NCBI GenBank assembly: GCA_043815885.1
Contig: JBDRIL010000050.1
Location: 1-22,489 of the forward strand
Length of the DNA stretch: 22,489 bases
Reading direction: 5' to 3'
Origin: an archaeon
Lineage (GTDB): Archaea > Iainarchaeota > Iainarchaeia > Iainarchaeales > 1-14-0-10-31-34
The translations under genes were made by a program, and so were the position numbers. Numbering within the stretch: the first letter of the stretch is position 1; each line of letters starts with the position of its first letter. The notes below the pieces were generated by a model. That model did not search any database. It was not told the origin of the DNA and saw only the letters and a program-made list of their open reading frames with translations. Shown here piece after piece: positions 6,753 through 22,082 of this stretch.

Positions 6753-6983
6753 ATGAGGAAAGAAGTATTATTAGTTGGATTGATTGCTTCAATCTTTTTG
6801 ATTGGATGCTTTCAGACGCCTACAACGCCCAAACCATTGTGCGGGAATGGAGTAATAGAATCAGGAGAGACATGCAGAACCTGTCCGGCAGATGTTGGAG
6901 AATGCGCGGAAACACTTAATCCGCCGGAATTTCCTGCTGTAACAGAAGGCGATGAAGGGACTCCTCCAAAGATTCCGTTCTGA
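6753..6983 (+). CDS. Small lipoprotein with a CGNG..E.GE.C..CP.D Cys-rich motif, 76 aa
   Basis: Lipobox FLIGC, GGAGG RBS, and CGNGVIESGETCRTCPADVGEC, which resembles the myxobacterial-type Cys-rich repeat. Confidence 0.85.
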   Translation: MRKEVLLVGLIASIFLIGCFQTPTTPKPLCGNGVIESGETCRTCPADVGECAETLNPPEFPAVTEGDEGTPPKIPF

Positions 6984-7038
6984 ATCCATTCCTTTCTTTT
7001 TTTTATTTTTATTTAATTAATTTCTGATTTTTTGGTTA

Positions 7039-7128
7039 TATCAAAGGACAAATTTTGTTTCTATATTTTGGTCCTTTGATAGCTATCAAAAGACATTAAT
7101 TATGAAACTTTTTTAATGTCTTTTGATA
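7039..7128. mobile_element. 90-bp double-hairpin MITE-like element, copy 1 (A+ / GC / B+)
   Basis: TATCAAAGGAC..GTCCTTTGATA-GC-TATCAAAAGACATTAA..TTAATGTCTTTTGATA. Flanked by TTA (7036-7038) and TTA (7129-7131). Confidence 0.85.
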
Positions 7129-7165
7129 TTAGTTCGATAGATTTAAAAAAATTTAGTTATGGAGC

Positions 7166-7234
7166 ATTTTTTATTGTATGCCGAAGGCATACAATATTTT
7201 TTGATAAAACTTTTTGGAAAAGTTTTTTTAATGA
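7166..7234 (-). repeat. Hairpin repeat family 2, copy a
   Basis: TATTGTATGCC-GAA-GGCATACAATA (7172-7196) plus AAAACTTTT-TGG-AAAAGTTTT (7206-7226). Its reverse complement aligns with 10553-10635. Confidence 0.8.
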
Positions 7235-7257
7235 AATTCTTCTTAGGTGCATGAAAA

Positions 7258-7437
7258 ATGAAGGTTGTCTGCCCTCGATGTGGAGAGGACTTTGAAGTTG
7301 ACTCAGAGCTGTACGAGGAAGGGGACAGTGTTGAATGTCCTGGCTGTGGAATTGAGTTATCAGTAGTGAGGAAAGGGAAAAAATTGTGTGTAGTGGATTC
7401 TCTGGAGGAAGTTCCAGAAGAAGACTACGAAGAATGA
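7258..7437 (+). CDS. LysW-like zinc-ribbon protein, 59 aa (not in ORF track)
   Basis: MKVVCPRCGEDFEVDSELYEEGDSVECPGCGIELSVVRKGKKLCVVDSLEEVPEEDYEE: two CPxCG motifs and an acidic tail. AGGTG upstream. Confidence 0.8.
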   Translation: MKVVCPRCGEDFEVDSELYEEGDSVECPGCGIELSVVRKGKKLCVVDSLEEVPEEDYEE

Positions 7438-7439
7438 GT

Positions 7440-7730
7440 TCATTTATTTTGAGTTATTGTCTCTCTTTCTTTCCTGAATTCCTTTGTCAAGTTAAATATG
7501 TAAATAAAAACAGCGAATAACGCAATGAATGCAATAAGGTTAAAGGGAAAAACTACTTCTGGGAAAACAGAAAAATTTCTAGTGGGGTCCAAATAGAAGT
7601 ATACTGAGAAAGCAATTATCACTGAAAGCATTACTTCAAGCATTACCAAAGCAATTATTCTTGGATCATTTTTTGCTTCAATGACTTTTTCTTTTGCATT
7701 CCTTCCCTTTTCTTTTACTTTTTCAAGCAT
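7440..7730 (-). CDS. Hypothetical membrane protein (2 TM), 96 aa
   Basis: ATG-started ORF with a basic N-terminus and two hydrophobic segments. Confidence 0.75.
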   Translation of the reverse strand: MLEKVKEKGRNAKEKVIEAKNDPRIIALVMLEVMLSVIIAFSVYFYLDPTRNFSVFPEVVFPFNLIAFIALFAVFIYIFNLTKEFRKERETITQNK

Positions 7731-7763
7731 TTAATTGCACTTCCCTTAATCTATTAATTAATT

Positions 7764-8367
7764 CTAAATTAAATACTTTGCTATTTCCAGGAATAAATCA
7801 TTTAAGTAGTAATAGAATTGGGAAATATAGGAAGGCTGGAAAGAGAAGATAACAAGCAATAAAACCCATGCAATCCTCAAAAAAGAAGAGTAATTGAATG
7901 AAAGCATTAAGCCAAGAACAATGATTAATGGAATGAATACAAATGGAAAGGTAATAAGCCAGAAAAGTCTGGCTATAATATTGCCTCTCTTGAATATTGC
8001 TCTGGAATAAAAGCTAGTGAAGGAATAAAAGGAATTCTTTGCGTCATGGAGTGAGGGAAAGGAATAAAACAATAACCCCAAAGCAAACCAGTAAAAAAGA
8101 AAACCCATTGGATTGAATGCAGTGAGGAATTCCCTTCCTGTATCCATTAAAAGCAAAGCAATCACTGTTCCGAGAATGAATGGGGCAAGAGTAATAATAA
8201 TTGATTTCCATGCAGAAGGAACTTCATGAACCACATAAGCTTCCTCTACTCCAAAGAATTTCACCTGCTTTACCTTTACCCCCAAAATAACACAGGCAAT
8301 TAAATGGCTTAATTCATGGAAAACCATTCCAGGAAAAAAAAAAGTAATGCAGTCTGAATTTAGGCAT
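7764..8367 (-). CDS. Membrane zinc metalloprotease-like protein (HExxH; M50-like/DUF3267-like) with an apparent +1 frameshift in a T10 run
   Basis: FPGMVFHELSH, later LAPF and FPS..D motifs, several TM segments. ATG 8367 gives MPKFRLHYFFF, which joins PGMVFHE only if one base of the 10-nt run (8334-8343) is removed. Confidence 0.75.
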
Positions 8368-8416
8368 AAGAAAAAATAGGATGAAGAAGAATAAATAGTT
8401 TTCTGATTAAACCTAA

Positions 8417-8599
8417 TTATTTTCCAAAGAGATAGACGATGCCTAAAGCAATGATTATGACTGGGAGGAAGTAGGCCCACATATCGAAATTCAGCCAGGC
8501 ATCCCATTCAAGGTAACCCAGAGAAGTTAGGAGAAAGATTATTCCAAATACCACTAAGAACAAGCCAGTGCCTTTCCCGTTGGAGTCTTTTTCCCCCAT
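8417..8599 (-). CDS. Small 2-TM protein, LiaI/LiaF-like (DUF5668-like), 60 aa
   Basis: GLFLVVFGIIFLL..LG......W...PVIIIALGI..LF pattern. ATG 8599 is preferred over the longer track ORF, which overlaps the divergent lipoprotein gene. Confidence 0.75.
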   Translation of the reverse strand: MGEKDSNGKGTGLFLVVFGIIFLLTSLGYLEWDAWLNFDMWAYFLPVIIIALGIVYLFGK

Positions 8600-8714
8600 T
8601 TTTTGCCCCCACAAAGTAATAACAAAGAAATTAATGGGAGAAAGAATATTTAAGGACAAAGGTTTTTGAGTGAAAGCGAAAGAAATAAAAGGAATAGCCA
8701 GAAAAGAATAATTA

Positions 8715-9287
8715 ATGAAGGAAAAAATATTTTTTATGCTTGTTTTTGCTGCACTGGTTTTGTTGGTGGGGTGTACTGGAACCACACAAAAGAATCTAGA
8801 GAGACAGATAAGTGAGCAAATTGATTCAATGAATTACTGTGACGGAAATGAAGAATGCGTGGTTAAAGGGTTTGGATGTCCGTTTGGATGTTATTCTTTG
8901 GTTAACAAGGATGCTAATTTAGAAGCAGTAGAAGAAATGCTTGTCAAGTATAATGGAATGGGTCTGGGCTGCAGGTATGCGTGTGGAGAGCTTCCGGAAT
9001 TGGTTTTTTGCCTTGAGGGAAGGTGTATTGTTCCGGAGGAAATTCCGGAAATAACTTACTGTGAGGAAGATGAAGAATGCAAAGTCGTTTACAAGGGAAC
9101 AGATAATTGCTGTCCGAGATGTGAACCAATTGCAATCAACAAGGAAAAAGAAGAGCAATACAATTCATACTATGAGGAATACAGTGACGGAAAATTCTGT
9201 GGGAAAATGGCCTGTGAACCCTGTGATTCATTGAAAAAATACGAGGCAAAATGCTATAAGGAAATGAATTCATGCTATTATGAGTAA
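8715..9287 (+). CDS. Cys-rich lipoprotein with two C..D.EC-type repeats, 190 aa
   Basis: Lipobox LLVGC. Repeats YCDGNEECVV...CPFGC...VNK and YCEEDEECKVV...CCPRC...INK. Confidence 0.85.
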   Translation: MKEKIFFMLVFAALVLLVGCTGTTQKNLERQISEQIDSMNYCDGNEECVVKGFGCPFGCYSLVNKDANLEAVEEMLVKYNGMGLGCRYACGELPELVFCLEGRCIVPEEIPEITYCEEDEECKVVYKGTDNCCPRCEPIAINKEKEEQYNSYYEEYSDGKFCGKMACEPCDSLKKYEAKCYKEMNSCYYE

Positions 9288-9291
9288 ATAA

Positions 9292-9711
9292 TTATTCTCT
9301 TGTTTCTACTCCCATTTCTTCGTCAAGTTCTTTGGCTGTTTGTTCCATTTGCCTGAAAACCCTGTCTATGTCTTCCTCTATTTCCCTTATAGTGCGGAAA
9401 ATGCTCTTGCTTCTGGCTTTATAGTATCTGCCCTCTTTTATAATCAATCCAGAGCGCTGAAGATTGCTTAAATGGTTTACAACAGCGCCTCTGCTCATCT
9501 TAACCATTTCAGCTATGTCAGTAGAAGAGAGAAGCCTTCCCTTCTCAGTGGCTTTAACTATCTCCCTGAAAATAGATGCAGCAGTCTTGTCTCTATCCAT
9601 TGGCTCAAAGAAGCCCAAACACCTCAAAATCCAGTTAAAGTCCTCATCAAATGCATCAGAAAAAGGTCTTTCAACACTCCTAATAACTACCTTAAAGCGC
9701 GCTCTCTCCAT
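9292..9711 (-). CDS. Winged-HTH (ArsR-like) transcriptional regulator with C-terminal coiled coil
   Basis: LSSTDIAEMVKMSRGAVVNHLSNLQRSGLIIKEGRYY HTH-wing. Divergent from grpE. Confidence 0.9.
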   Translation of the reverse strand: MERARFKVVIRSVERPFSDAFDEDFNWILRCLGFFEPMDRDKTAASIFREIVKATEKGRLLSSTDIAEMVKMSRGAVVNHLSNLQRSGLIIKEGRYYKARSKSIFRTIREIEEDIDRVFRQMEQTAKELDEEMGVETRE

Positions 9712-9732
9712 AATAAAGAAAAATATGAATGG

Positions 9733-9789
9733 AAAGATTTAAAAAAAGATTGATTAAGAAATTTAGTTATTGATTAAATCTTTTAGTCA
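9733..9789. promoter_or_regulatory. Overlapping divergent promoters with two tandem palindromic candidate operators
   Basis: AAAGATTTAA (9733-9742) and its reverse complement TTAAATCTTT (9774-9783). TGATTAA-N5-TTAGTTA (9751-9769) and TGATTAA-N5-TTAGTCA (9771-9789). Confidence 0.6.
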
Positions 9790-9799
9790 GTGGTTTTTA

Positions 9800-10297
9800 G
9801 TGAAAAAAGAACAGAAAGAAAGCAGGGACAAAGAGAAAGAATTAACGGAAAAAGTAAATGAATTGACTGATACTGTAAAGAGGGTGCAGGCAGAATTCGA
9901 GAACTACAAGAAAAGAATGGACAAAGAGAAAGCAGAATTTGTTGAGTACAGTACTACCTCTTTTGTTTCAAAACTTCTTCCAGTGCTTGATTCAATTGAT
10001 GCAGCAAAGAAACAGTTGAATGAAAGGGAAGGCAAGGGAGTTGAATTGATTCAAAAACAGCTGATGGATTTGCTTCAAAAGGAAGGATTAAAGGAAATCA
10101 ATGCAGAAGGAGAAAAATTTGATCCTCTCTGTCATGAGGCATTAATGCAGGGAAATAATAAGGAGAAGGATGATTGTGTTGTATTGGAGGAACTGCATAA
10201 AGGGTATTTGTTTAAGGGCAGGGTATTGCGGTGTGCAAAGGTAAAGATAAATAAATTAAGTGAAGGTGAAAAAAGTGAAGAAGGAAAAAAAGGATGA
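9800..10297 (+). CDS. grpE: Nucleotide exchange factor GrpE (GTG 9800 preferred to TTG 9770)
   Basis: KRVQAEFENYKKR, LLPVLD, GEKFDPLCHEA and KGYLFKGRVLR.AKV motifs. Confidence 0.96.
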   Translation: MKKEQKESRDKEKELTEKVNELTDTVKRVQAEFENYKKRMDKEKAEFVEYSTTSFVSKLLPVLDSIDAAKKQLNEREGKGVELIQKQLMDLLQKEGLKEINAEGEKFDPLCHEALMQGNNKEKDDCVVLEELHKGYLFKGRVLRCAKVKINKLSEGEKSEEGKKG

Positions 10298-10559
10298 GAA
10301 GAAAAAGGACATTGATTTGAAGAATATTGAGGAGAGAGTGAAGGAAATAAATGCTAACAAGGGTTTTGTGCTTACAGTGAGTACTAATCCTGAAACCAAG
10401 AGGACTGATTCATCCTTATCAATGAAAGGGGTTTCAGCAAACGATGTGCTGGCTGAAATAGAGAAATTCAAGATAGCTTTCATATATGCTGGCCAGAGCT
10501 ATCAGAAACCGAATATTGAAAAAGAAGAGAAAACGAGTGGATTGGATTATGCTCATTAA
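10275..10559 (+). CDS. Hypothetical protein between grpE and dnaK (start uncertain, 10260-10275)
   Basis: Open frame overlapping the grpE 3' end. GGTGA at 10265-10269 precedes GTG 10275. Confidence 0.7.
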   Translation: MKKEKKDEKKKDIDLKNIEERVKEINANKGFVLTVSTNPETKRTDSSLSMKGVSANDVLAEIEKFKIAFIYAGQSYQKPNIEKEEKTSGLDYAH

Positions 10560-10635
10560 AAAAAAACTTTTATCAAAAGTTTTATCAAAAAATATCAAAA
10601 AAACATCTTATGCCTTCGGCATACAATTAAAAAAT
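10553..10635 (+). repeat. Hairpin repeat family 2, copy b (upstream of dnaK)
   Basis: AAAACTTTT-ATC-AAAAGTTTT-ATCAAAAAATAT...TATGCC-TTC-GGCATA-CAAT, homologous to the reverse complement of 7166-7234. Confidence 0.8.
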
Positions 10636-10659
10636 TATTTTTATTAGGAGTGATGTAAA

Positions 10660-12531
10660 ATGGCAAAGGTAATAGGAATTGATCTCGGCACTTCGAACAG
10701 TGCAGCATCAGTATTGGAGGCAGGAAGAGCAGTAATAATTCCTTCTGCGGAAGGAGCTACTGCCTATGGAAAGGCTTTTCCTTCAGTAGTGGCTTTCACC
10801 AAAGACGGGCAAATGCTTGTAGGAGAACCAGCAAGAAGGCAGGCAGTAAGCAATCCAGAAGGAACAATAACTACTGCAAAGAGAAAGATGGGCACAACGC
10901 ATAAATACAATATTTTTGGAAAAGAGTATACCCCCCAACAAATCAGTGCATTCATACTGCAAAAGATAAAGAGGGATGCTGAAGCATTTCTTGGAGATAA
11001 AGTAGAAAAAGCAGTAATAACTTGCCCTGCCTACTTTGATGACAACCAGAGACAGGCAACAAAGGATGCCGGAAGGATTGCCGGATTAGAGGTAATAAGA
11101 ATCATTAATGAACCAACTGCTGCTTCACTGGCTTATGGCGTGGACAAGAAAGGAAAGGAGCAAAAAATACTAGTATTTGATTTTGGGGGAGGAACACTTG
11201 ATGTAACAGTAATGGAATTCGGAGAAGGAGTATTTGAGGTAAAGAGCACTTCCGGAGACACTCAGTTAGGCGGAACAGATATGGACAAGGCAGTAATGGA
11301 ATGGATTGTGAAAGAATTCAAGAAGAGTGAAGGCGTTGATTTAATGAAGGACAGGATGGCTGTGGAAAGAGTAAGAGAAGCAGCAGAAAAAGCAAAGATT
11401 GAATTAAGCAATGTACTTGAAACAGACATCAATCTTCCATATGTTACTGCCTCTAAAGAAGGGCCAAAGCATCTGGTAATGAAATTAAACAGAGCAAAAG
11501 TAGAGGAGCTTGTAGAACCAATAATAAAGAAATGTGAAAAACCCATTAATCAGGCACTGGCTGACGCAAAGCTAACTCCGGCAGAAATAACAAGGATTAT
11601 TCTTGTTGGAGGCCCAACAAGAATGCCTGTGTTGCAGAAATTCGTTGAAAGAGTGGTTGGAAAGAAAGTGGAGAGAGGAGTCGACCCAATGGAGTGTGTT
11701 GCAATGGGTGCGGCAATACAGGCAGGAGTCCTTCAGGGAGAGGTAAAGGACGTGCTTCTTTTAGATGTCACTCCATTAAGCTTGGGGATTGAAACATTGG
11801 GAGGAGTGTTCACTAAATTAATTGAGAGGAATACTACGATTCCAACAAAAAAGTCACAGATATTCAGTACCGCGGCAGAAAATCAAACTGCAGTAGACAT
11901 TCATGTATTGCAGGGAGAACGCCCAATGGCTACAGACAATAAGACTCTGGGGAGATTTCAATTGGTTGGAATTCCTCCTGCTCCAAGAGGCATCCCGCAA
12001 ATAGAGGTGACATTTGATATTGACGCAAACGGAATAGTGCATGTAACGGCAAAGGACTTGGGAACAGGAAAAAGCCAGAAAATAACTATTGTTGCCTCGC
12101 AGAAGTTAAGCGAAGATGATGTTGAGAAAATGCGGAAAGAAGCAGAACAGTACTCTGAGACAGACAGGAAGAAGAAAGAGGAAGCAGAAACAATAAATGA
12201 AGCGGATACTGTGGTTTACACTACAGATAAATTGCTGAAGGATATGGAAGGAAAGGTTGAAGCAGGAAAACTAAAGAAAATAAATAAAGGAACAGAGGAA
12301 TTAAAGGAATTAATGAAACCACAACAGAAGGATATTGCAGCAATAAGAACAAAACTCCAGGAAGTACAGAAAATAATTCAGGAAGCTTCAGTTGAATTGT
12401 ATCAGAAGGCACAGCAGGCAAGGCAACAGCCAGGAGCAGGCGCGGAAGAAAAAGAAGGAAAAAAGGATTCAGAGAAAGACAATGCAGTTGACGCTGATTA
12501 CACTGTAGAGGACGACAAGGAAAAGAAGTGA
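10660..12531 (+). CDS. dnaK: Chaperone DnaK (Hsp70)
   Basis: [31 protein letters not shown] and [14 protein letters not shown] motifs. Short (archaeal/Gram-positive type) N-terminal subdomain. GGAGTGA RBS. Confidence 0.99.
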
Positions 12532-12586
12532 AAAAATTAACTTCTTTTCCCTCTATTTTTTTAGTGACTGGCAGAAGGAAGAATAC

Positions 12587-13744
12587 ATGGCAGAAGAAAA
12601 AAAAGACTACTACGAGATTCTGGAAATAAAAAAGGATGCTTCACAGGAAGAAATAAAGAATGCATATAAGAAGCTGGCAAAAAAATACCATCCGGATGTA
12701 AGCAAGGAAGCAAATGCTGAAGCAAAATTCAAGGAAGTTTTGGAGGCATACAATGTATTGAGTGACCCCCAAAAGAGAGGCAATTACGACCAGTTTGGCC
12801 ATGCAGCAGAAGGATTTTCTGGATTCAGGGGATTCGGGGATTTCAGGGAAGGATTTGATTTCAGTGACTTCAGCAATGTGGGATTTGATTTTGAGGATTT
12901 ATTTGATAGATTTGGATTCGGGGATGTTTTTGGAAGAGAATTTCGCAGAACAAAACACAGGGCAAGAAAAGGGCTGGATTTAAGGTTTGATTTAAGCATT
13001 AGTTTTGAGGAAGCTGCTTTCGGGACAGAAAAGGAAATTGAATTAGAGAGAGTGGATGAGTGTGGAAAATGTAATGGAAGCGGTTCAGCAGGAAAAGGAG
13101 GAATGATTGACTGTCATGAGTGTGGCGGTAGCGGGGTAAAGGAGACAACCAAGAGAACTTTCTTTGGAATATTTACTACTAGGACTGCGTGCAGGAAATG
13201 CAATGGGGAAGGAAAGATAATTAAGAATCCATGCAAGGAATGCAATGGATTGGGAAGAATCAGGATAAAAAGAAAGATAAAGGTGAAAGTACCGGAAGGA
13301 ATTGACAATGGATCATATCTCAGGCTGGGGGGAGAGGGAAATGCAGGAGACAGAGGAGCAGAGAATGGGGATTTATTTGTAGTTGTGTTTATTGAACCGC
13401 ATGATTTTTTCAGAAGGGACGGAGCAGATATCTTTGCTGAAATTCCGATTACGTTTTCAATGGCTGCACTGGGAGGAAAGGTAAAGGTTCCGACATTAAA
13501 AGAAAAAGTTAATTTAAGCATTCCTTCCGGAACCCAAACCGGAACAATATTCAAATTAAAGGGGAAAGGAGTAAAGGATTCTGAGAGAGAAGGTTATGGG
13601 AGCGAATACATTAAAGTGATTGTAAGAACGCCAAAGCATTTAAGCAAAAAAGAAAATGAATTATTTGAACAGCTTAAGCAGGAAGAAAAGGATGAAATGG
13701 AGGGGGATTCCTTCTTTAAAAAATTCAGGAATTCCTTTAAATAA
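12587..13744 (+). CDS. dnaJ: Co-chaperone DnaJ (class A)
   Basis: J-domain with HPD, G/F-rich region, four CxxCxGxG motifs and a C-terminal domain. Confidence 0.99.
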   Translation: MAEEKKDYYEILEIKKDASQEEIKNAYKKLAKKYHPDVSKEANAEAKFKEVLEAYNVLSDPQKRGNYDQFGHAAEGFSGFRGFGDFREGFDFSDFSNVGFDFEDLFDRFGFGDVFGREFRRTKHRARKGLDLRFDLSISFEEAAFGTEKEIELERVDECGKCNGSGSAGKGGMIDCHECGGSGVKETTKRTFFGIFTTRTACRKCNGEGKIIKNPCKECNGLGRIRIKRKIKVKVPEGIDNGSYLRLGGEGNAGDRGAENGDLFVVVFIEPHDFFRRDGADIFAEIPITFSMAALGGKVKVPTLKEKVNLSIPSGTQTGTIFKLKGKGVKDSEREGYGSEYIKVIVRTPKHLSKKENELFEQLKQEEKDEMEGDSFFKKFRNSFK

Positions 13745-13786
13745 AGGAACTTTTAAATAATTGTTTTAACATAAAGAGTAAGCGTA

Positions 13787-14365
13787 ATGGGCGTAAAAAA
13801 AGCAATTGGAATAATAATTATACTGATTATAATCGGGGTTATTGGATACTATTTGCTGGAGGGAAGGCTTCCCTTTTTGGGTTACTCTTTTGATAATGGA
13901 TTGGCGAAGATAGATGGAATTGATTCCTCTTATGGATTGAATGAAGAAAGAATTGTTCCAGGAGAAGAGGATGAGCTGAAAGGATATTTAAGTGAATTAA
14001 TTGAATTCAGGAAAGAACTGAATGAACTTCCTTCAAGCAATGAAGTAAAGGCATTGGGATTACTGGTTGATGCAAGAATAAATCTAGTGGGAATGAAAGA
14101 GGCATTGATTGAAGCAAAAAAGGAAACAGAACTGAGTCATGGAGAGGGCTGTGAGAGAGGCACTCCAACCTATAATGCAATAAATGCATTTGAGGAAGCA
14201 GAAGATTATGCATCAAAAGCAAATTCTTCAATAAAGGAATTAGAAGAAGATTATCCAATGCTTGCAGAAAAAACCAGGGAATGGAATGAAAATGTTTTAG
14301 TGAGCACAACAGAGATAAGCGAGAGAACAGAAGAATTAGCATTAATGCTGCAGCAGTATTGTTAG
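13787..14365 (+). CDS. Hypothetical N-terminally membrane-anchored helical protein, 192 aa
   Basis: Single hydrophobic N-terminal segment followed by an acidic helical body with two Cys. Confidence 0.8.
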   Translation: MGVKKAIGIIIILIIIGVIGYYLLEGRLPFLGYSFDNGLAKIDGIDSSYGLNEERIVPGEEDELKGYLSELIEFRKELNELPSSNEVKALGLLVDARINLVGMKEALIEAKKETELSHGEGCERGTPTYNAINAFEEAEDYASKANSSIKELEEDYPMLAEKTREWNENVLVSTTEISERTEELALMLQQYC

Positions 14366-14381
14366 TGCAAAGTGATTTTTT

Positions 14382-14997
14382 ATGAAACTGATTTATAGGG
14401 GGGGCGGAAGCAGAACTGTTTGAAGTGAAGAGGAATGGAAAGAAATTGGCAGTGAAGAACAGGCTGGAGAAGAAATACAGGAGAAGGGAATTGGATAAGG
14501 GCCTGAGGGAAAAGAGGACAAAGAAAGAAGCTAACTTGATCAAGAGAGTTAGGGAATTGGGAGTGGTTACTCCGGATGTTTATTCAGTGAATAAGCAGAG
14601 TGGAGTGATTGAAATGGAGTTCATTGAGGGAAAGAAGCTGAGGGACTGCTTGAATGAAAGGAATGTCTCTCTTTGCAAGGAAATTGGAAGAGAGATTGGG
14701 GTAATGCATTCAAATGGAATAATTCACGGGGATTTAACTACCTCAAATATTATTCTGAGGAAGAGAGGAAAAAAGAACGAGCTTGTTTTCATTGATTTTG
14801 GGTTAGGCCAAAATAGCAATAAAATTGAGGACAAGGCAGTTGATTTAATTGTATTCAAAAAAACCTTTCTTGCAACGCACTTCAGGTTAGGGAAAGGCTG
14901 GGAGCTTATAAGGAAGGGTTACCTGGAAGAAGGAAAGGAAGTGGAAAAGGTGCTGAAGCAAATGGAGGCTGTGGAGAAAAGAGGCCGTTATCTGTGA
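14382..14997 (+). CDS. bud32: KEOPS kinase/ATPase Bud32 with an apparent +1 frameshift in a G7 run
   Basis: AVK.R..K.YR, RTKKEA, IIHGDLTTSN, FIDFGL, EDKAVDL and RGRY motifs. The conserved GAEA lies upstream of GTG 14425 and joins ATG 14382 (MKLIYRGAEAELF) only if G7 (14398-14404) is G6. Confidence 0.93.
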
Positions 14998-15100
14998 AGA
15001 ATTAGAAATATAAACCTTAATGTATATATAAATATTAATTAAAAAGGCATTTCTGATGCTATTTTTATTTCCATTATGATTTTTTTGAAGGTATATCAAG

Positions 15101-15553
15101 ATGGTTGGAAACAATAGCAGTAAAGAGAAGACAAAGGAAAAAAAGGTTTCAGGTAAAGATACGGCTGGAGAGAAAAAGCTAAAAACAAAGGAAATAGAGG
15201 AATTAATAGTTGAATTGGCTCATGCAGGAAACACTCCCTCGCAAATAGGAATCATTCTAAGGGACCAATATGGAATTGCAAGTACCAAAGAAATGGCCAA
15301 AAAGAAGATAGAAAAGATAATGGAAGAAAAAGGGGTTGGCTCTGAACTTCCAAGGGATTTATTGAATCTGATAAAGAAGTCAGTGAATGAACACAAGCAC
15401 ATGGAGAGAAACAGGAAGGACATGGTAGCGAAAAGAGGATATCAATTGACTGTATCAAAGATAAGAAGGCTTACAAAATATTATGTCAGAAAAGGAAAAC
15501 TGCCTGAAGGATGGAGATACACTCCGGAAAAGGCTGCATTACTGGTGAAGTAA
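15101..15553 (+). CDS. rps15: 30S ribosomal protein uS15 (S15/S13e)
   Basis: PSQIGIILRDQYGI, LP.DLLNLIKK, H...NRKD..AKRG, SKIRRL.KYY and LPEGWRY motifs. Confidence 0.97.
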   Translation: MVGNNSSKEKTKEKKVSGKDTAGEKKLKTKEIEELIVELAHAGNTPSQIGIILRDQYGIASTKEMAKKKIEKIMEEKGVGSELPRDLLNLIKKSVNEHKHMERNRKDMVAKRGYQLTVSKIRRLTKYYVRKGKLPEGWRYTPEKAALLVK

Positions 15554-15690
15554 TGAAGTACGAGCTTGCTTTTGGGGATGAAGAGAGAACGATCGAAAGA
15601 AAAGGAGAAAAGGAATTAAACGAGATTCTTGCAGAAATAAATGAATTAATATCAAAGGACAAAAATATAGAGACAAAATTTGTCCTTTGA
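15553..15690 (+). CDS. Small ORF coupled to rps15 (TAATG overlap), 45 aa, with its 3' end supplied by the inserted element
   Basis: MKYELAFGDEERTIERKGEKELNEILAEINELI-SKDKNIETKFVL*. Removing the element and one TAA gives ...INELIK* (34 aa). Confidence 0.55.
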   Translation: MKYELAFGDEERTIERKGEKELNEILAEINELISKDKNIETKFVL

Positions 15691-15739
15691 TAGCTATCAA
15701 AAGACATTAATTATGAAACTTTTTTAATGTCTTTTGATA
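15650..15739. mobile_element. 90-bp double-hairpin MITE-like element, copy 2 (A- / GC / B+)
   Basis: Same arms as copy 1 with the A loop reverse-complemented. Flanked by TAA (15647-15649) and TAA (15740-15742). Confidence 0.85.
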
Positions 15740-15762
15740 TAATTAAATGAATTGGTGGATGA

Positions 15763-16362
15763 ATGGCTGAAGAAAAAAAGGAAAAGAAGGGAAAACCAAA
15801 AAGAACAGTGGACAAATGGAAGAAAAAGAAATGGTTTACCATTTATTCTCCAAAACTATTTGACCAAAAAATTGTCGGGGAAACAGTGGCAGAAAAACCA
15901 GAGTTACTGAAAGACAGAATTATTTCTGTTTCTGCAAGAGACGTAACAAACCAACCAAGAAAACAGCATGTTTCATTTAACTTCAAGATAAAAGATGTGC
16001 AAGGCCTTAAGGCTTACACTGAATTGGTTGGGCATGAAGTTAAACCCTCTTTTTTGAAGCGACTTATAAGAAGGAGAAGCAGCAAGATTGAAACAAATCA
16101 AGTAGTGCAGTTAAAGAACGGAAACAAGGCAAGTGTAAAGACAGTTGTTCTTTCCATGAAAAAATTAAGGGAAAGACAGAAGACAGCAATAAGGAAAATA
16201 ATAATTCAGAAGATTGACTATGCCGGAAAGAAGAAGGACTTTGATGACTTTGTACAGGAACTAGTTCTTGGGCACGTTGCATCAAAGATAGGAAACGAAG
16301 CCAAAAAGATTGCATTAATAAAGAGAGTGGAAGTAGTTAAATCAGCATTAACAAAAAAATGA
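15763..16362 (+). CDS. rps3ae: 30S ribosomal protein eS1 (S3Ae)
   Basis: DKWKKKKWFTIYSPKLF, GET.A..P, RLIRRRSSKIE and IKRVEVVK motifs. Confidence 0.96.
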   Translation: MAEEKKEKKGKPKRTVDKWKKKKWFTIYSPKLFDQKIVGETVAEKPELLKDRIISVSARDVTNQPRKQHVSFNFKIKDVQGLKAYTELVGHEVKPSFLKRLIRRRSSKIETNQVVQLKNGNKASVKTVVLSMKKLRERQKTAIRKIIIQKIDYAGKKKDFDDFVQELVLGHVASKIGNEAKKIALIKRVEVVKSALTKK

Positions 16363-16368
16363 ATTGAT

Positions 16369-17067
16369 ATGAATACATTAATTGAAATATTAATCGTATT
16401 ATTATTCCTGCTGTTTTTTTCTTTTATTTCATTAAGAAAAAAGAGTTTAGACTTAAACGGAGTAATCATAGGGAGTGTTATCGGAATAACAATCTATTTC
16501 TTTGGAAGAAATACAGTTGTGGGAGGACTGAATGCATTCTTTTTTATTGCATTATTCTATGTAGTGGCAGACCTTGGAACAAGGTATGGGAGAAACAAAA
16601 GAGAAAAAGAAACAGAAAAAAGAACCACTGGAAATGTATTGGGAAATAGCTTGGCTGCAGTAATTGCATTGGGCTTAGGTTCAGTTATTGGATTCTTTTC
16701 AGCTGTCTCTTCTGCATTGGCTGACACTCTTTCCTCAGAGATAGGAATGCTTTCAAGAAAGAAACCAGTATTAATCACTACTTTTAAGGAAGTTCCCACT
16801 GGAACAGACGGAGGAGTAACCTCGTTAGGAACAATTGCAGCATTGCTTGGAGCAGTAATAATCGGTTTAGCTTACTTTGTTTTCTTTAATGACGCGTTAG
16901 TAGCATTAATAGTGATTATGGCAGGAGTGATTGGCTCTACAGTGGATTCATTGCTTGGAGCAATATTTGAAAGAAAAAAATTACTGAGCAATACATGGGT
17001 TAATTTTCTTTCATGCGGCAGCGCAGCAGTGGCAGGATTCTTGTTATTGAAATTGATGACAGGGTAA
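16369..17067 (+). CDS. DUF92 (TMEM19/VTE6-like) membrane protein
   Basis: R...NVLGN, ALADTLSSEIG, P.LITTFK.VP.GTDGGVT.LG, DSLLGA.FE and N..VNF motifs. Confidence 0.93.
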   Translation: MNTLIEILIVLLFLLFFSFISLRKKSLDLNGVIIGSVIGITIYFFGRNTVVGGLNAFFFIALFYVVADLGTRYGRNKREKETEKRTTGNVLGNSLAAVIALGLGSVIGFFSAVSSALADTLSSEIGMLSRKKPVLITTFKEVPTGTDGGVTSLGTIAALLGAVIIGLAYFVFFNDALVALIVIMAGVIGSTVDSLLGAIFERKKLLSNTWVNFLSCGSAAVAGFLLLKLMTG

Positions 17068-17077
17068 TGGAATAAGT

Positions 17078-17998
17078 TTAGGTTTGAATGCTTATGGGTT
17101 TGTTTTGGGTTCTTATTGCTGAGATAAAGCCTGTTCCAAAGGAATAGCCTGCGTTTGAAAACATTGAAAAAACGTCTTCTCTTTCAACGTAGTTCTTTAG
17201 GACTGGTTTTCCCTGTATTCCTGCAAGTTCTGCTGCCTTTTGTATTGCTTCTTCCCTGTTTCCAAGCTCGTCGACCAAACCTGATTCTTTTGCCTGGCTT
17301 CCTGAAAGAATCCTTCCATCAGCAATTCTTTCAAATTCTGCTTTAGTTATTTTTCCTTTTCTTAATTCCAGTACATCGCGCTTGAAGTGAGAGAATGCAT
17401 CAGAGAGAAGTTGTTGCAGTAATTGCTCTTCTTCTTCAGTCATCTCTTCAAAAGGAGAGCCCATTGCTTTAAAGTTTCCTTCCTTCAAAACATTAACTTT
17501 TACCCCGATTTTTTCAAGAAGTCCCTCTATGTTTGGAGAGATGCTTAGAACTCCAATGCTTCCGGTGATTGAATCCTCGTCAGCCATTATAAAGTCAGAA
17601 GCAGCAGCCAAATAGTAAGCCCCTGATGCTCCGCTCTCTCCAATCCATGCAACCTTTGGTTTATTCATGGAACGGAGTTTAGCAACAATTTGTTTTGTTG
17701 CAACTATTGTTCCTCCAGGGGAATCAATATCCAGAAAGATTGCTCCAACCCTTGGATCGTTTTCTGCTTTATCCAGTGCATCAACTATTTTTTGCGAAGA
17801 GGCAAAGGAAGTAAAGCCTGTTTCCTCACTCAGTATCTCTCCCTTTACTGGAATCAATGCAATCTGTTTTGCCCCAAAAAAGCCTCCAGTAGAAACGTCC
17901 TGAAAGGGAAGGAATAGGAAAGCAACAAGTAAAGCTAATCCAATGAGTATAACCAACAAAAAACCTATCACAAATAAGAATAAAAGTGGTTTCTTCAT
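17078..17998 (-). CDS. sppA: Signal peptide peptidase SppA (36K type, S49)
   Basis: IDSPGG, GASGAYYLA, SITGSIGV, FK.MGSPF, ADGRILSG.QA and GLVDELG motifs. Confidence 0.96.
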   Translation of the reverse strand: MKKPLLFLFVIGFLLVILIGLALLVAFLFLPFQDVSTGGFFGAKQIALIPVKGEILSEETGFTSFASSQKIVDALDKAENDPRVGAIFLDIDSPGGTIVATKQIVAKLRSMNKPKVAWIGESGASGAYYLAAASDFIMADEDSITGSIGVLSISPNIEGLLEKIGVKVNVLKEGNFKAMGSPFEEMTEEEEQLLQQLLSDAFSHFKRDVLELRKGKITKAEFERIADGRILSGSQAKESGLVDELGNREEAIQKAAELAGIQGKPVLKNYVEREDVFSMFSNAGYSFGTGFISAIRTQNKPISIQT

Positions 17999-18058
17999 GT
18001 AATAATTGAATTACATCATTAGAAATAAAAAGCTAATTAATTTCATATAATACTTACA

Positions 18059-18571
18059 ATGATTGAATTTATTGCAAGGATTGCATTAATGCTTGTTCCA
18101 ATGTATTTAGCTAATTCAGGGGCAATGCTTTTAGGAGGAAAGACTCCTCTTGATTTAAACAAGAAATTCATTGATGGAAGGGAATTCCTTGGAAAGGGAA
18201 AGACCTGGAAGGGAAGTTTTTTTGGAGTAATACTTGGATTGATTGGAGCAGGCATTATTGCATTTATTTTCACTGATTTTACGGTTTTACTCACAGAGAA
18301 CTATTTATTGTATGGCTTGCTTTTGTCTGTTGGAGCAATACTTGGAGACATTGCTGGAAGTTTTTTGAAGAGAAGGCTTGCAATTCCCCCGGGAAAAGAA
18401 GCATTTCCATTGGATCAGCTTGACTTTGTATTGGGAGGAATTTTATTGGGGGGGATTCTGCATATTCCTTTAATAGAAGAAGCAGTAGTGATAATTATAT
18501 TTACAGTTATAGCCCATAAGTTCACTAACTTTATTGCATTCAAGATTAAATTGAAAAAGGTGCCTTGGTGA
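18059..18571 (+). CDS. carS: CDP-archaeol synthase CarS (DUF46)
   Basis: PMYLANSGA, P.D....FIDG..LG.GKTWKG, GDIAGSFLKRRL, PLDQLDF and C-terminal K.VPW motifs. Confidence 0.93.
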   Translation: MIEFIARIALMLVPMYLANSGAMLLGGKTPLDLNKKFIDGREFLGKGKTWKGSFFGVILGLIGAGIIAFIFTDFTVLLTENYLLYGLLLSVGAILGDIAGSFLKRRLAIPPGKEAFPLDQLDFVLGGILLGGILHIPLIEEAVVIIIFTVIAHKFTNFIAFKIKLKKVPW

Positions 18572-18588
18572 TTTAAATCAATAAATTA

Positions 18589-19053
18589 TTGCTGTTTTTA
18601 ATCAAGTTTTGCGTGATATTTGCCCTATTGCATTTAATTGTGTGGAGTGTTGACCTGAGTTTTTTAGAGAATTCAATTGCCTCTTTTGAGGCAGGGCTTA
18701 CTGGACTGGAAAGCAATGGAAATATTATAGCAATCAATGCCCAAAAAATTGAAATCAATCCCTCCTGCACGGGATTAATAAGCATAAGCATTCTTGCAGC
18801 AGTTATTTTTTCCCTAAGAAAACCAGAGTTAAAGAAGAAGATAATTATTTTTGCTGCAGGAGGAATTTCACTGCTTTTATTGAATCTCTTAAGGGTTTAC
18901 TTTGTAATAGTGGTTGGGAAAACATACGGGATTGCAGCAGGAGAGATAGCTCATGAATTAAGCTGGCTGAGCACTGCAATATTCATTATTGTTTTATGGT
19001 ATTATTTAACGAAAAGAATCACTGGAACAAAGAGCTTCAATGAATTAGTGTGA
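18589..19053 (+). CDS. Exosortase/archaeosortase family protein (start uncertain)
   Basis: Triad residues in membrane context: INPSCTG (Cys), LNLLRV (Arg), IAHELSW (His). Confidence 0.88.
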   Translation: MLFLIKFCVIFALLHLIVWSVDLSFLENSIASFEAGLTGLESNGNIIAINAQKIEINPSCTGLISISILAAVIFSLRKPELKKKIIIFAAGGISLLLLNLLRVYFVIVVGKTYGIAAGEIAHELSWLSTAIFIIVLWYYLTKRITGTKSFNELV

Positions 19054-19058
19054 TTTTA

Positions 19059-19148
19059 TATCAAAAGACATTAAAAAAGTTTCATAATTAATGTCTTTTG
19101 ATAGCTATCAAAGGACAAATTTTGTCTCTATATTTTTGTCCTTTGATA
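19059..19148. mobile_element. 90-bp double-hairpin MITE-like element, copy 3 (B- / GC / A+; exact reverse complement of copy 2)
   Basis: 90/90 match to the reverse complement of 15650-15739. Flanked by TTA (19056-19058) and TTA (19149-19151, the secD stop codon). Confidence 0.85.
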
Positions 19149-20765
19149 TTATTTTTCCCTGCTTAAAATAAATCTGACTATTTCTCCAAAGGCAGGCCTG
19201 GTGATAAATACCCCAATTAATACTCCGGAAATAGTAGTTATTGCAAATCCAACAAGTCTTCCCATTCCTGAAGAGAAAAGGATTAATGGAAACATTGTTA
19301 CAATTGTAGTGGCTGCTGCAGCAAAGATAATAAAGAAGGCCCTCTTTAACCTGTTAATGAAAGAGGTTTCCAGTTCTTCCTCTTTCCTGATTAATTCATC
19401 AGTGATAATTATTTGATGGTCGACACCTGTACCGACTGCAGCAATTATTCCTGCCATTGCAGCCAAATCAAGGTTCCATTTAATAAGGGAGGCAAATCCA
19501 AGGATTATTACTACTTCGGAAAAAGCAGTGAAAATTATTGGGAAGGTAATCCCGACAATCCTGTACCTTATATAGATTACTATCCCTATTACGATTAATG
19601 CAAGAACCCCCATTATTAATGCAGTGAACAGGAATTCACTTCCAAGAGTGGGGGAAATAGTCTCCTTGCTGATGCTTTCAACTGCAATAGGCAGTGAACC
19701 GCTCTCCAATAGTATTGCAAGGTTATCCAGTTTTTCTTTTGCGTCTTTTTCATTCAATCCATAACCCCTTATTACCAGATTGGAATACGTTTTTGCTTCC
19801 TCTATCCTGTCAATATATGGCTCCATGTTTGTTACGTCTTCGCTTAAGGAAATGACTTCTTTTACTCCAGTAACAGTCCAGATCCATGGAATGCCTTCCT
19901 CTGGCTTTACTTCTTTTACCCTGAAACCAAATGAATTCAGATCCTGCCTTACTTCTTCCGAGACAGAAGAATGAATCAATGCAGTGGGATAATCATTTGA
20001 AAGAAGATCTAATTTGGTTAACTGTTCCACTGAAAGGTTTTCATCAAAGACAATGAAAGGAGCAGATGCATTACTTAAAAGATTCTCTATATCGGTTTTT
20101 TCCGGGATTCCCACTAGCCTGTCTCCCTTCAAAAGCATTTCAGTGTCATTGGAGTAAACCAGTGAAGGAATAACCAATACTGCTTCGGTTGGCCTGTCAA
20201 TAAAGAAATAAGTTTTTTCACATTCATAGGTTCTTCCCTGTGCTGGGTCAAAGGAAGTAATCTTGCATTTATGGAAAGTCATTTCAGTGAAGTTTTTTGC
20301 ACCAAAATCACTCAAAATAAATGGAAGAGTCCATTTAATTGCTTCTCCTTCCCTTGTAATCCCATATCCTTTGGAGGGGTCTTTTGGAATCTGGATTAGG
20401 TCAGAGCCGGAAAACAATACATTTCCGTCAAGCGTTGCCTCGAATTTTCCCTGTTTTTTTAGGAGAAGTTCAATTCTCTCAATGTTTTCTGCATCGGTTT
20501 CAGCTATCTGAGCCAGAATAAATTCATTTCCAAAGGAAGTGACTTTAGTGTCCTTTAATCCAGTCCAGTCAAGCCTCTTGGAAATAATTGAAACAATGTC
20601 ACCCAATTCATCAGAGGAAACAGGTTTGACTAAATGAATCTGGAACTGGGTTCCTCCCTTGAAGTCCAAACCCAATCTCAATCCATTAAAGGAAATAATT
20701 AAAAGTGAGAGAATCAATAAACTGATAAGAAGCAGGACTCTCCAGTTCCTTAAAAGTTCCCTCAT
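19149..20765 (-). CDS. secD: Protein-export membrane protein SecD
   Basis: LRLGLDFKGG, LESGSLP, ISPTLG and GIIAAVGTGVDHQIIITDE motifs. ATGA overlap with secF. Confidence 0.96.
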   Translation of the reverse strand: MRELLRNWRVLLLISLLILSLLIISFNGLRLGLDFKGGTQFQIHLVKPVSSDELGDIVSIISKRLDWTGLKDTKVTSFGNEFILAQIAETDAENIERIELLLKKQGKFEATLDGNVLFSGSDLIQIPKDPSKGYGITREGEAIKWTLPFILSDFGAKNFTEMTFHKCKITSFDPAQGRTYECEKTYFFIDRPTEAVLVIPSLVYSNDTEMLLKGDRLVGIPEKTDIENLLSNASAPFIVFDENLSVEQLTKLDLLSNDYPTALIHSSVSEEVRQDLNSFGFRVKEVKPEEGIPWIWTVTGVKEVISLSEDVTNMEPYIDRIEEAKTYSNLVIRGYGLNEKDAKEKLDNLAILLESGSLPIAVESISKETISPTLGSEFLFTALIMGVLALIVIGIVIYIRYRIVGITFPIIFTAFSEVVIILGFASLIKWNLDLAAMAGIIAAVGTGVDHQIIITDELIRKEEELETSFINRLKRAFFIIFAAAATTIVTMFPLILFSSGMGRLVGFAITTISGVLIGVFITRPAFGEIVRFILSREK

Positions 20766-21829
20766 CTTACAACACCCTTTCTCTTTCTTTCAGTGTACCA
20801 TAAAAGCACTGGAGCATTCAATAACCATGTAACAACCAAGTCACCAATCAATCCAAAGAATAAAACTAATGCTATTTCGAATATAACCATTATCTGGCTG
20901 AAATAACTCACTGCAAGCATTACCATCACCACAGCCAGAGAAGTGAGAGTCATTGTAAGGCCTGTTCCTATTGCCCCAATAGTTCTGTCTCTTGGAGTTT
21001 TTTCCCTTCTCTTCAATACCCTTGTAGTAAGCAATACATCAGTGTCAACAGAATAACCCAAAAGCATTAAGAGAGCAGGAATAGAACTAAGGGAAAGAGG
21101 GATGCTGAACAAAGACATTCCCGCTAGAGCTGCCACTACATCAAATATTCCTGCAAAAATAATGAGTGAAGCAGGAATTATTTCCCTGAAGAAAAAGAAA
21201 ATCACTACAATTATTCCAATAAAAGCAATTATTCCAACCAACACAGCATTATCCCAGAACGCCTTTCCTAATTGCGGGCCGATCTCTCTTAATTGAAAGA
21301 AAAATCCTTTCTTTAAACCAAACTTCTCTTCCACCAAATCCTTTATCTGGTTGTGGAAGGAATCCCTTGCCTTGGAAAAGAGTTCGTCTGCTTTTTCCAC
21401 TGCATCCCTTGCACTTAATTCCGGAGGAATGCTTTCATCAATAAAAGGAGAAAGTAAAGCTACAGCATTATTTGCGCGAAGGATTGCTTCAGAATCATTT
21501 TTCTGGGATAAAGCGTTTTTTGCTTCAAGCAATTCAATTGCTGAATCACTCAATACCCTGTTTTCAGCGAACTGAATTGTAATCCCGTAACCAGCAGGAC
21601 TGGAGATAGAGTCAACCCTTAAATCAGTTAAACTGAATCTCTCCTCCAAAAGAAACTCTAGTTCCCCTGCATTAACTGGGTTCTCTGTCCTTATAATGAT
21701 TAAGGTTCCTCCCTTCAAATCAATTCCCTGCTCTATTCCGGGAAAATAAAATACCATGAATAGAAAAGCAATGAATAGTATAACTGGCACTAAAGCATAG
21801 GTTAGATAATTTTTTTCATACAAACGCAT
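20762..21829 (-). CDS. secF: Protein-export membrane protein SecF (ATG 21829)
   Basis: GIDLKGGT, IGPQLG, LLMLLGYSVDTDVLLTTRVL and TWLLNA motifs. GGTGA RBS before ATG 21829. Confidence 0.96.
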   Translation of the reverse strand: MRLYEKNYLTYALVPVILFIAFLFMVFYFPGIEQGIDLKGGTLIIIRTENPVNAGELEFLLEERFSLTDLRVDSISSPAGYGITIQFAENRVLSDSAIELLEAKNALSQKNDSEAILRANNAVALLSPFIDESIPPELSARDAVEKADELFSKARDSFHNQIKDLVEEKFGLKKGFFFQLREIGPQLGKAFWDNAVLVGIIAFIGIIVVIFFFFREIIPASLIIFAGIFDVVAALAGMSLFSIPLSLSSIPALLMLLGYSVDTDVLLTTRVLKRREKTPRDRTIGAIGTGLTMTLTSLAVVMVMLAVSYFSQIMVIFEIALVLFFGLIGDLVVTWLLNAPVLLWYTERKRKGVVR

Positions 21830-21875
21830 TTTCCTTTCACCAAGCAAAAAAAAAGGATTTTCTTCCTTAATATTA

Positions 21876-21965
21876 TGTCAAAAGATATTAATTATGAAAC
21901 TTTTTTAATGTCTTTTGATAGCCATCAAAGGACAAACTTTGTTTCTATATTTTGATCCTTTAATA
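21876..21965. mobile_element. 90-bp double-hairpin MITE-like element, copy 4 (B+ / GC / A+), diverged
   Basis: Same modules as copy 1 in swapped order with six substitutions. Flanked by TTA (21873-21875) and TTA (21966-21968). Confidence 0.8.
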
Positions 21966-22082
21966 TTATATTAATTATTTAATTAATCTTTATTAGGGTG
22001 TTTTTTTAAAGATTACGAATTCAGGTTTTTGATTAAGCAATACAATAAATTTATAAATAAGAAGAACTTATTATTAATTGAA

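Follow-up and report, generated by a model that had tools for sequence, protein, structure and literature searches.

A TNA-duplicating miniature element of two terminal hairpins in Iainarchaeales, with loops found in both orientations and probably inverted in place

Here we analysed a window of 22,489 nucleotides (nt), the whole of contig JBDRIL010000050.1 from an Iainarchaeales genome (assembly GCA_043815885.1), which carries four copies of a 90-bp element built from two hairpins, A and B. The family to which these copies belong is a miniature inverted-repeat transposable element (MITE) that inserts at TNA and duplicates those 3 bp. In addition, the loop of each hairpin occurs in either orientation, giving up to four isomers of the same element. 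We favour the reading, with a probability of roughly 0.6, that this is an orphan MITE whose terminal loops invert in place, by template switching mediated by the hairpin arms or by short-patch recombination. The combination of an orphan TNA-duplicating MITE, two terminal hairpins and recurrent loop inversion appears to be new; the mechanism proposed for the inversion is itself ordinary.

Architecture of the element

The window copies lie at 7039-7128, 15650-15739, 19059-19148 and 21876-21965 (copies 1 to 4). Each consists of hairpin A, a GC spacer and hairpin B, and both the positions and this anatomy, as given in a first-pass annotation of the same DNA, were confirmed on the sequence. Hairpin A is 43 bp long, with 14-bp arms (TATCAAAGGACAAA) and a loop of 15 nt. 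Hairpin B is 45 bp long, with 16-bp arms (TATCAAAAGACATTAA) and the 13-nt loop TTATGAAACTTTT. The outer arms, TATCAAAGGACA and TGTCTTTTGATA, are complementary at 11 of 12 positions and form the terminal inverted repeats by which a MITE is recognised. Elements are 87-92 bp long and non-coding. Folded as single-stranded DNA, copies 1-3 have energies of -20.9 to -23.7 kcal/mol, with both hairpins formed and z of -7.8 to -10.0; no shuffle out of 200 matched them. The decayed copy 4 has a folding energy of -11.9 kcal/mol (z -3.4).

The arms are palindromic but the loops are asymmetric, so the orientation of each loop can be read directly. Copy 3 reads as copy 2 reverse-complemented (99% complementary over 99 nt), and copy 4, which appears as B+A+ on the plus strand, becomes A-B- when turned. 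Normalised to A-to-B order, copies 1-4 are thus A+B+, A-B+, A-B+ and A-B-, the three isomers in four copies that had been noticed earlier.

Target-site duplication and empty site

All four window copies are bounded by 3-bp direct repeats: TTA/TTA, TAA/TAA, TTA/TTA and TTA/TTA for copies 1 to 4. These repeats had been overlooked in the first-pass annotation. Of 84 distinct minimal doublets collected from this assembly and other genomes, 65 have the same triplet on both sides (TAA in 31, TTA in 30, TGA in 2 and TCA in 2), and permutation gave a mean of 31.9 identical pairs with a maximum of 46 in 10,000. With composite elements included, the count is 83 of 101 distinct elements. Palindromic flanks, where the left triplet is the reverse complement of the right, were seen in 7 of 143, a tally that reads many elements on both strands.

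Insertions are also polymorphic between related genomes. One in genome G041 reads ...GTTG TAA/TATC...GATA/TAA AATAGG..., and the same place in G042 is empty (...GTTGTAAAATAGG...), a precise empty site with a single TAA. Together, triplet identity and the empty site indicate that the element is the 87-90 bp running from TATC to GATA and that it duplicates a TNA target. The earlier proposal of a non-autonomous archaeal mobile element with four near-equivalent TATCAAA(A/G)GAC arms is supported by these data.

Copies across the assembly

The assembly, here G000, comprises 62 contigs (1.16 Mb, 36.8% G+C, 92% complete), of which the window is C50. Using short-query BLAST with hairpin A and hairpin B separately, we located 25 loci: 22 doublets and three solo hairpins. 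Two of the solo hairpins are B, both on C20, and one is A, on C45 (C45:10188), where it is bounded by TAA/TAA. The 22nd doublet, C14:29746-29836, was added later as a full doublet. A is always joined to B via a palindrome, either TGATAGCTATCA or a sequence one base away from it, and no A-A or B-B pairs were found among these loci. Normalised as above, the doublets are 13 A-B-, 3 A+B+, 3 A-B+ and 3 A+B-, so that all four isomers are present genome-wide and the loops do exist as orientation isomers, as first claimed from the window.

The arm motif itself is strongly enriched. The 10-mer ATCAAARGAC occurs 87 times in the assembly versus 7.6 expected from base composition, and the 12-mer TATCAAARGRCA occurs 79 times versus once for its reversed control; with counts this far over expectation, chance is excluded. 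All but three of the 12-mers (76 of 79) fall within the 25 loci, and those three are isolated and unpaired. Therefore G000, as assembled, contains no longer element with such ends, of the kind that the first-pass annotation proposed to look for around a transposase or recombinase gene.

All 22 doublets are intergenic, yet only 11.5% of the TTA/TAA sites in the genome are outside genes. Their neighbouring genes are divergent in 11 cases, tandem in 8 and convergent in 3, and the divergent share is not above that of intergenic TTA/TAA sites (p = 0.2). In 4 of the 22 the duplicated triplet is the stop codon of a neighbouring gene, including copy 3 and a SecD-like gene.

Recurrence and frequency of loop inversion

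In G000, 12 of 44 loops are flipped. In other lineages A-B- is the rule, and approximately 7 of 162 loops (in 81 elements) are flipped: the A loop at L035 (= L099), L182 and L120/L051, and the B loop at L056, L128 and L139. These flips recur in five other genomes or metagenomes. Each was confirmed by visual comparison with copies from its own lineage; alignment to the G000 loops and A/T skew are unreliable indicators of orientation once loops have diverged. The inverted segment is always exactly the loop, present as its exact reverse complement, with arms and flanks unaltered. Such exact inversion of a loop between unchanged arms is the hallmark of an inversion that the inverted arms bring about.

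Counted by copy, G000 has a strong excess of flipped loops (12/42 versus 7/162 elsewhere, p = 2e-5, before the 22nd doublet was counted). Counted by event, the difference is not significant, with at least 4/21 in G000 versus about 7/81 elsewhere (p = 0.23). Loop alleles, distinguished by ATGG or ATAG in A and by AACTAAT or AATTAAT in B, are found both ways round and indicate at least two A flips and at least two B flips. Within the window, the A-B+ isomers of copies 2 and 3 are identical and have a private GAGAC loop variant in common. A flipped isomer has thus been copied unchanged, and flipping is not tied to every copying event. Flipped and unflipped copies overlap in their divergence from consensus, with no clear difference in age.

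Inversion between the arms

Each end of the element is a complete hairpin in itself: the terminal inverted repeat is matched by a second, internal copy in inverse orientation across a loop of 13-15 nt, and in the minimal form only GC separates the two hairpins. In the mechanism we favour, a loop bracketed in this way by a perfect inverted repeat of 14-16 bp would be invertible without a dedicated enzyme. The nascent strand could switch template between the arms and then switch back in the course of replication or repair synthesis. An equivalent route would be a short recombination or conversion tract that resolves within the arms, possibly with a copy of opposite orientation as donor. Either route would turn the loop into its reverse complement and leave arms and flanks intact. 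If the two loops flip independently, four isomers would result, and the flipped isomers would stay transposable and be amplified as such. We infer that the isomers are probably a passive consequence of this architecture, followed by amplification of whichever isomer transposes.

Comparable events have been reported elsewhere. Loop inversions in ribosomal RNA and microRNA hairpins are ascribed to replication template switching (PMC8794818), and "IR spacer inversion" is described together with homogenization of the inverted-repeat (IR) arms by template switching (PMC8604942). Plastome inversions of 5-50 bp between 11-24-bp arms are said to occur in "flip-flop orientations" (Kim & Lee 2005, via PMC12928735); the element's arms (14 bp in A, 16 bp in B) and loops (15 nt in A, 13 nt in B) are within the ranges quoted in that source. 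Like these small hairpin inversions, as those reports present them, the inversions here are recurrent, concern loops and arms in those size ranges (5-50 nt and 11-24 bp), leave arms and flanks intact and accompany homogenised arms. The reported cases concern single-copy loci compared between species, whereas here the locus is a multi-copy mobile element whose isomers coexist and are then amplified. Arms are near-invariant across the genomes carrying the element, and loops vary in sequence and length (3-21 nt). One lineage has altered both B arms jointly (TATCGAAAG/CTTTCGATA), which fits the arm homogenisation predicted by template switching.

Of the possibilities raised in the first-pass annotation, loops that invert in place fit best. 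A hairpin-resolution or circular intermediate, raised alongside, is not supported: insertion is that of a standard cut-and-paste MITE, with a 3-bp duplication and a precise empty site, a flipped isomer was copied unchanged, and four of the six element-bearing genomes tested have no HUH/Y1 gene.

Several observations weigh against in-place inversion of an orphan MITE. No orthologous pair was found that differs solely by a flip; the pairs found, including two between G041 and G042, have the same orientation, and no inversion was caught in the act. The copy-level excess in G000 is not predicted by a purely clock-like process acting in place. No partner transposase was found in the genomes searched, and the insertion chemistry is something we infer from the target duplication alone. 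Finally, some relatives have whole hairpin modules inserted or replaced at the junction between A and B, as described below.

Host range and composite forms

We scanned one genome per species, 185,579 species in total, for the exact junction pattern and obtained 43 loci. Thirty-nine are in 14 genomes, either metagenome-assembled (MAGs) or single-amplified, titled Candidatus Iainarchaeum, Diapherotrites, Forterrea or "archaeon"; the doublet is present at every one of the 39. The other four are bacterial, have no hairpins and are chance matches. Among 196 genomes of the window's order, 13, spread across 7 families, contain at least 10 arm 12-mers (controls 0-5), with G000 the richest. In these scans the family was confined to DPANN archaea of the Iainarchaeum/Diapherotrites type.

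Scanning metagenomes for hairpin A returned 48 loci, with B adjacent in 34, extra modules between A and B in 2, a diverged B in 1 and A-type hairpins elsewhere in 11. Nine of the 48 are identical to G000 loci, four of them with a flipped loop, and do not count as independent evidence. Patterns for hairpins A and B had no matches in viral contigs. Two viral loci that match the junction pattern were taken as chance, as the arm-motif scan finds no arm there.

Composite elements make up 10 of 101. In G119 and G120, additional hairpin modules totalling 47-142 nt lie between the same A and B hairpins, which again have TAA/TTA duplications, and in G023, a complete genome of the same order, four or more types of module with TAGC... 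heads form arrays. The minimal doublet L200 and its orthologue L210 differ by a 45-nt hairpin module at the A/B junction, where TA is duplicated, and L207 and L213 have differing modules at the same locus. Such differences between orthologues point to single hairpin modules that move by themselves, with the junction as a hot spot. From these comparisons, hairpin modules of 43-45 nt seem to be mobile in their own right in relatives.

Other mosaic forms were also seen. L197 and L206 (G119/G120) are orthologous loci that likewise differ in 43-45-nt modules at the A/B junction. The mosaic arrays of G023, at L004, L009, L013, L016 and L019, have the heads TAGCAAAAGAC, TAGCAAACAGC, TGCAAAACGC and TAGCGAATGAC and resemble bacterial interspersed mosaic elements (BIMEs). 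L030, from a Candidatus Iainarchaeum andersonii record, has the form B-A-B, a doublet next to another B with one TTA in common, as though it had landed in the triplet that an older element had duplicated.

Search for a partner enzyme and for known families

No match to Y1_Tnp, DDE_Tnp_4, DDE_Tnp_1, rve, DDE_3, IS1595 or ISL3 was found in the contigs of G000, a 92%-complete genome in which absence is not proven. A transposase with matching ends was not found in any genome searched. Y1 (PF01797) is absent from four of the six element-bearing genomes tested (G000, G023, G041 and G042) and present in G033 and G043, with no arm motifs nearby. In relatives, the ends of DDE_Tnp_1 and Y1 loci contain no arm motifs, and the only IS5-like element seen, of 985 bp, ends in GGCGGTGTAGAAAT, which is unrelated to the arms.

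G000 does contain two full-length TnpB elements (IS200/IS605-type, IS1341-like) at C38:17338-18576 and C11:11256-12494. They are 90% identical over 1319 bp, each with an open reading frame (ORF) of 412 amino acids, and a third, partial TnpB copy is on C2; TnpA was not found in the assembly. The ends of the TnpB elements are unrelated to the arms, and they were rejected as partner. Except for these elements, the other large repeats are all paralogous housekeeping genes and were rejected as insertion sequences. Two tyrosine-recombinase genes, at C36:29713-30201 and C49:13912-14439 (frames of 299 and 327 amino acids), are on contigs without doublets; the latter may be part of an integrated element.

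The family appears to be undescribed, as had been supposed: no description of it was found in the literature searched, papers on MITEs in DPANN archaea included, although the supplementary catalogue of PMC11602168 may contain it. A search of the whole window against Rfam at E <= 1 gave one unrelated match at 17252-17442, far under the gathering score, and with no relevant match an Rfam identity was rejected.

Comparison with known systems

Duplication of 3 bp at TWA/TNA is typical of Tourist-like MITEs (PIF/Harbinger, in eukaryotes) and, in prokaryotes, of derivatives of IS1031-type elements of the IS5 family. The element resembles these MITEs in being small, non-coding and multi-copy, with terminal inverted repeats and a 3-bp TTA/TAA (TNA) duplication, and in being intergenic and polymorphic in insertion between relatives. 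It differs in that each end is a full hairpin, the minimal form has no interior and the loops occur both ways. Unlike MITEs derived from IS5 or PIF/Harbinger elements, it has no autonomous DDE element with the same termini among the genomes searched here.

The ends of adeno-associated virus (AAV) and poxvirus genomes are ends of linear replicons, inverted at each round of replication by hairpin transfer or resolution, and their forms are roughly equimolar. The element is similar in having two terminal hairpins, each in either orientation, and four isomers. In contrast to those ends, it is integrated in chromosomal contigs with host flanks and target duplications, is skewed towards one isomer and has no Rep-like gene. 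We rejected a parvovirus-like terminus on the grounds of integration, the strong skew of the isomers and the lack of a nickase.

Repetitive extragenic palindromes (REPs), BIMEs and REP doublets that form hairpins (REPINs) are likewise short extragenic palindromes arranged head to head, and the module arrays of G023, G119 and G120 are mosaic in the same way. REP doublets are described in two "configurations", TT-AA and AA-TT, which that account explains by re-pairing of the ends of neighbouring doublets and not by loop inversion (PMC3337134). As characterised there, REPINs make no target duplication and need a Y1 REP-associated tyrosine transposase, or RAYT (PMC3337134); here a duplication is present and Y1 is absent from G000. 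Identity with REPs or REPINs was rejected, since a target duplication is made and there is no RAYT.

Alternative explanations

Flipping could instead be coupled to transposition, either because hairpins are re-inserted either way round or because gap-fill synthesis copies the terminal loop in reverse. Repair that fills the 3-nt gaps would run into the adjacent terminal hairpin, and both hairpins are indeed terminal, each abutting the duplicated triplet. The solo A at C45:10188 with its own TAA/TAA flanks, the replacement or insertion of 43-45-nt modules at the A/B junction (L200/L210 and L207/L213), and the fact that G000, with the largest share of flipped loops, also has numerous young copies that hardly differ from one another would all be consistent with such coupling. 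We nonetheless give it a fairly low chance of being correct. In copies 2 and 3 a flipped isomer has been copied without being re-randomised, the frequency of flips at the event level is not clearly higher in G000, and none of the genomes searched yielded a transposase with matching ends. Furthermore, synapsis by a DDE enzyme of ends lying 15 nt apart in duplex DNA is sterically implausible.

A second possibility is that the modules of 43-45 nt (TATCAAAGGAC-, TATCAAAAGAC-, TAGCAGACC- and TAGCAAACAGC-type) are themselves the mobile units, a mobilome of Iainarchaeota inserted at TA or TNA by an enzyme that recognises the folded form, hairpin or cruciform. The A-B element would then simply be two modules, and a flip would reflect module turnover or repair-coupled copying of a terminal hairpin, not a passive mutation. 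We consider this improbable as an account of the isomers.

A third possibility, also improbable, is that the element is a functional site kept by the host, such as a bidirectional terminator or a promoter-proximal or protein-binding hairpin, whose orientations are selected T-run variants. Two orthologous copies match at 83/86 and 88/89 positions (171/175 in total) versus 358/400 in the adjacent +/-100 bp, so that they are nearly unchanged between genomes whose flanks differ by approximately 14%. One orientation of each loop contains a run of T5-T6, the arms are conserved across 7 families of the order, and the stop codon of a neighbour is the duplicated triplet in 4 of 22 doublets. However, insertion is polymorphic between relatives, orientation relative to genes is mixed, and half of the copies are between divergent genes, where no terminator is needed. 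The share of divergent genes does not exceed expectation (p = 0.2), there is no match to an Rfam family, and loops differ in both sequence and length (3-21 nt).

It is very unlikely that a hairpin-resolving system, whether an HUH nickase, a protelomerase or another recombinase, produces flip and flop forms as at parvovirus or poxvirus termini. Four isomers from two independently oriented terminal hairpins are what AAV genomes display, and G000 encodes the two tyrosine recombinases and the TnpB genes noted above. The copies, however, are in intergenic DNA of the chromosome and have 3-bp target duplications, one site is cleanly empty in a relative, and the isomers are far from equimolar (13:3:3:3). 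No Y1/HUH was found in G000, G023, G041 or G042 (4 of 6 tested), no arm motif was found near the Y1 or DDE genes of other genomes, the viral contigs are without hairpin A or B, and the TnpB ends are unrelated.

That the isomers are assembly or sequencing artefacts of palindromes is likewise very unlikely, even though palindromes are artefact-prone and our read-derived contigs have low coverage (about 4-6x in the best of four runs), break at repeats and mix reads of all copies: the arms (14-16 nt) are below any usual assembly word, the 141-nt overlaps between contig ends read as an assembly word longer than the element, identical isomers occur in nine separately listed metagenome contigs (four with a flipped loop), flips occur in five other genomes or metagenomes, and a contig from another run (X4, record 25, 6797-7068, one other letter) spans the flank and A+ loop of copy 1.

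Significance

Symbiont-type archaeal genomes of about 1 Mb are generally thought to be streamlined, and here they maintain an active, apparently orphan family of tiny transposons that is conserved across at least 7 families of one order. With two arm-bracketed loops per copy and approximately 20 copies per genome, the family provides a natural multi-copy reporter of hairpin-loop inversion in archaea, where to our knowledge template-switch loop inversion has hardly been measured. The elements adjoin start and stop codons, and copy 3 supplies the stop of the SecD-like gene. Annotators of these MAGs should mask them, and flipped loops should not be counted as clusters of point mutations.

Features of the window and neighbouring repeats

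Copy 1 is on the plus strand. Its hairpin A, with loop A+ (the T-rich loop on the plus strand), is at 7039-7081 by sequence and folding, followed by the GC spacer at 7082-7083 and hairpin B, with loop B+, at 7084-7128 by sequence, inverted-repeat comparison and folding. The duplicated TTA is at 7036-7038 on the left and 7129-7131 on the right. Copy 2, also on the plus strand, has hairpin A with loop A- and the GAGAC loop variant at 15650-15692, the GC spacer at 15693-15694 and hairpin B with loop B+ at 15695-15739, between the TAA triplets at 15647-15649 and 15740-15742.

Copies 3 and 4 are on the minus strand. Copy 3 (A-B+) has B at 19059-19103, GC at 19104-19105 and A at 19106-19148, with TTA at 19056-19058 and 19149-19151. 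The right triplet is the TAA stop of the SecD-like gene (19149-20765, minus strand), and the stop codon of an exosortase-like gene is 5 nt from the other end of the copy. The decayed copy 4 (A-B-) has B at 21876-21920, GC at 21921-21922 and A at 21923-21965, with TTA at 21873-21875 and 21966-21968. Genes in the window are archaeal and include Kae1/TsaD, ribosomal S3Ae and S13/S15, and a class III signal peptide.

A second repeat family is present in the same genome. Its full form is about 125 nt long, occurs in 13 copies of 85-95% identity (e.g. C20:22552-22676) and contains three hairpins, among them ATTGTATRCCGAAGGYATACAAT with A/T runs on either side. In the window, short forms with two hairpins are found at 7167-7229, 38 nt from copy 1, and at 10560-10633 (inverted), upstream of dnaK. 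Another short copy of this family is inside loop B of the doublet at C56:2479-2627.

The window also contains two tandem 200-nt repeats at 4421-4860, 84% identical and 240 nt apart, within an ORF for a secreted protein of 1131 amino acids (3344-6739); they encode a repeated CGDVTNDG...NQLDVDF segment. Many contig ends of G000 overlap by exactly 141 nt at 100% identity, among them C50:22349-22489 with C1 and C50:1-141 with C5. That length appears to be the word size used in assembly, and these contigs could be joined.

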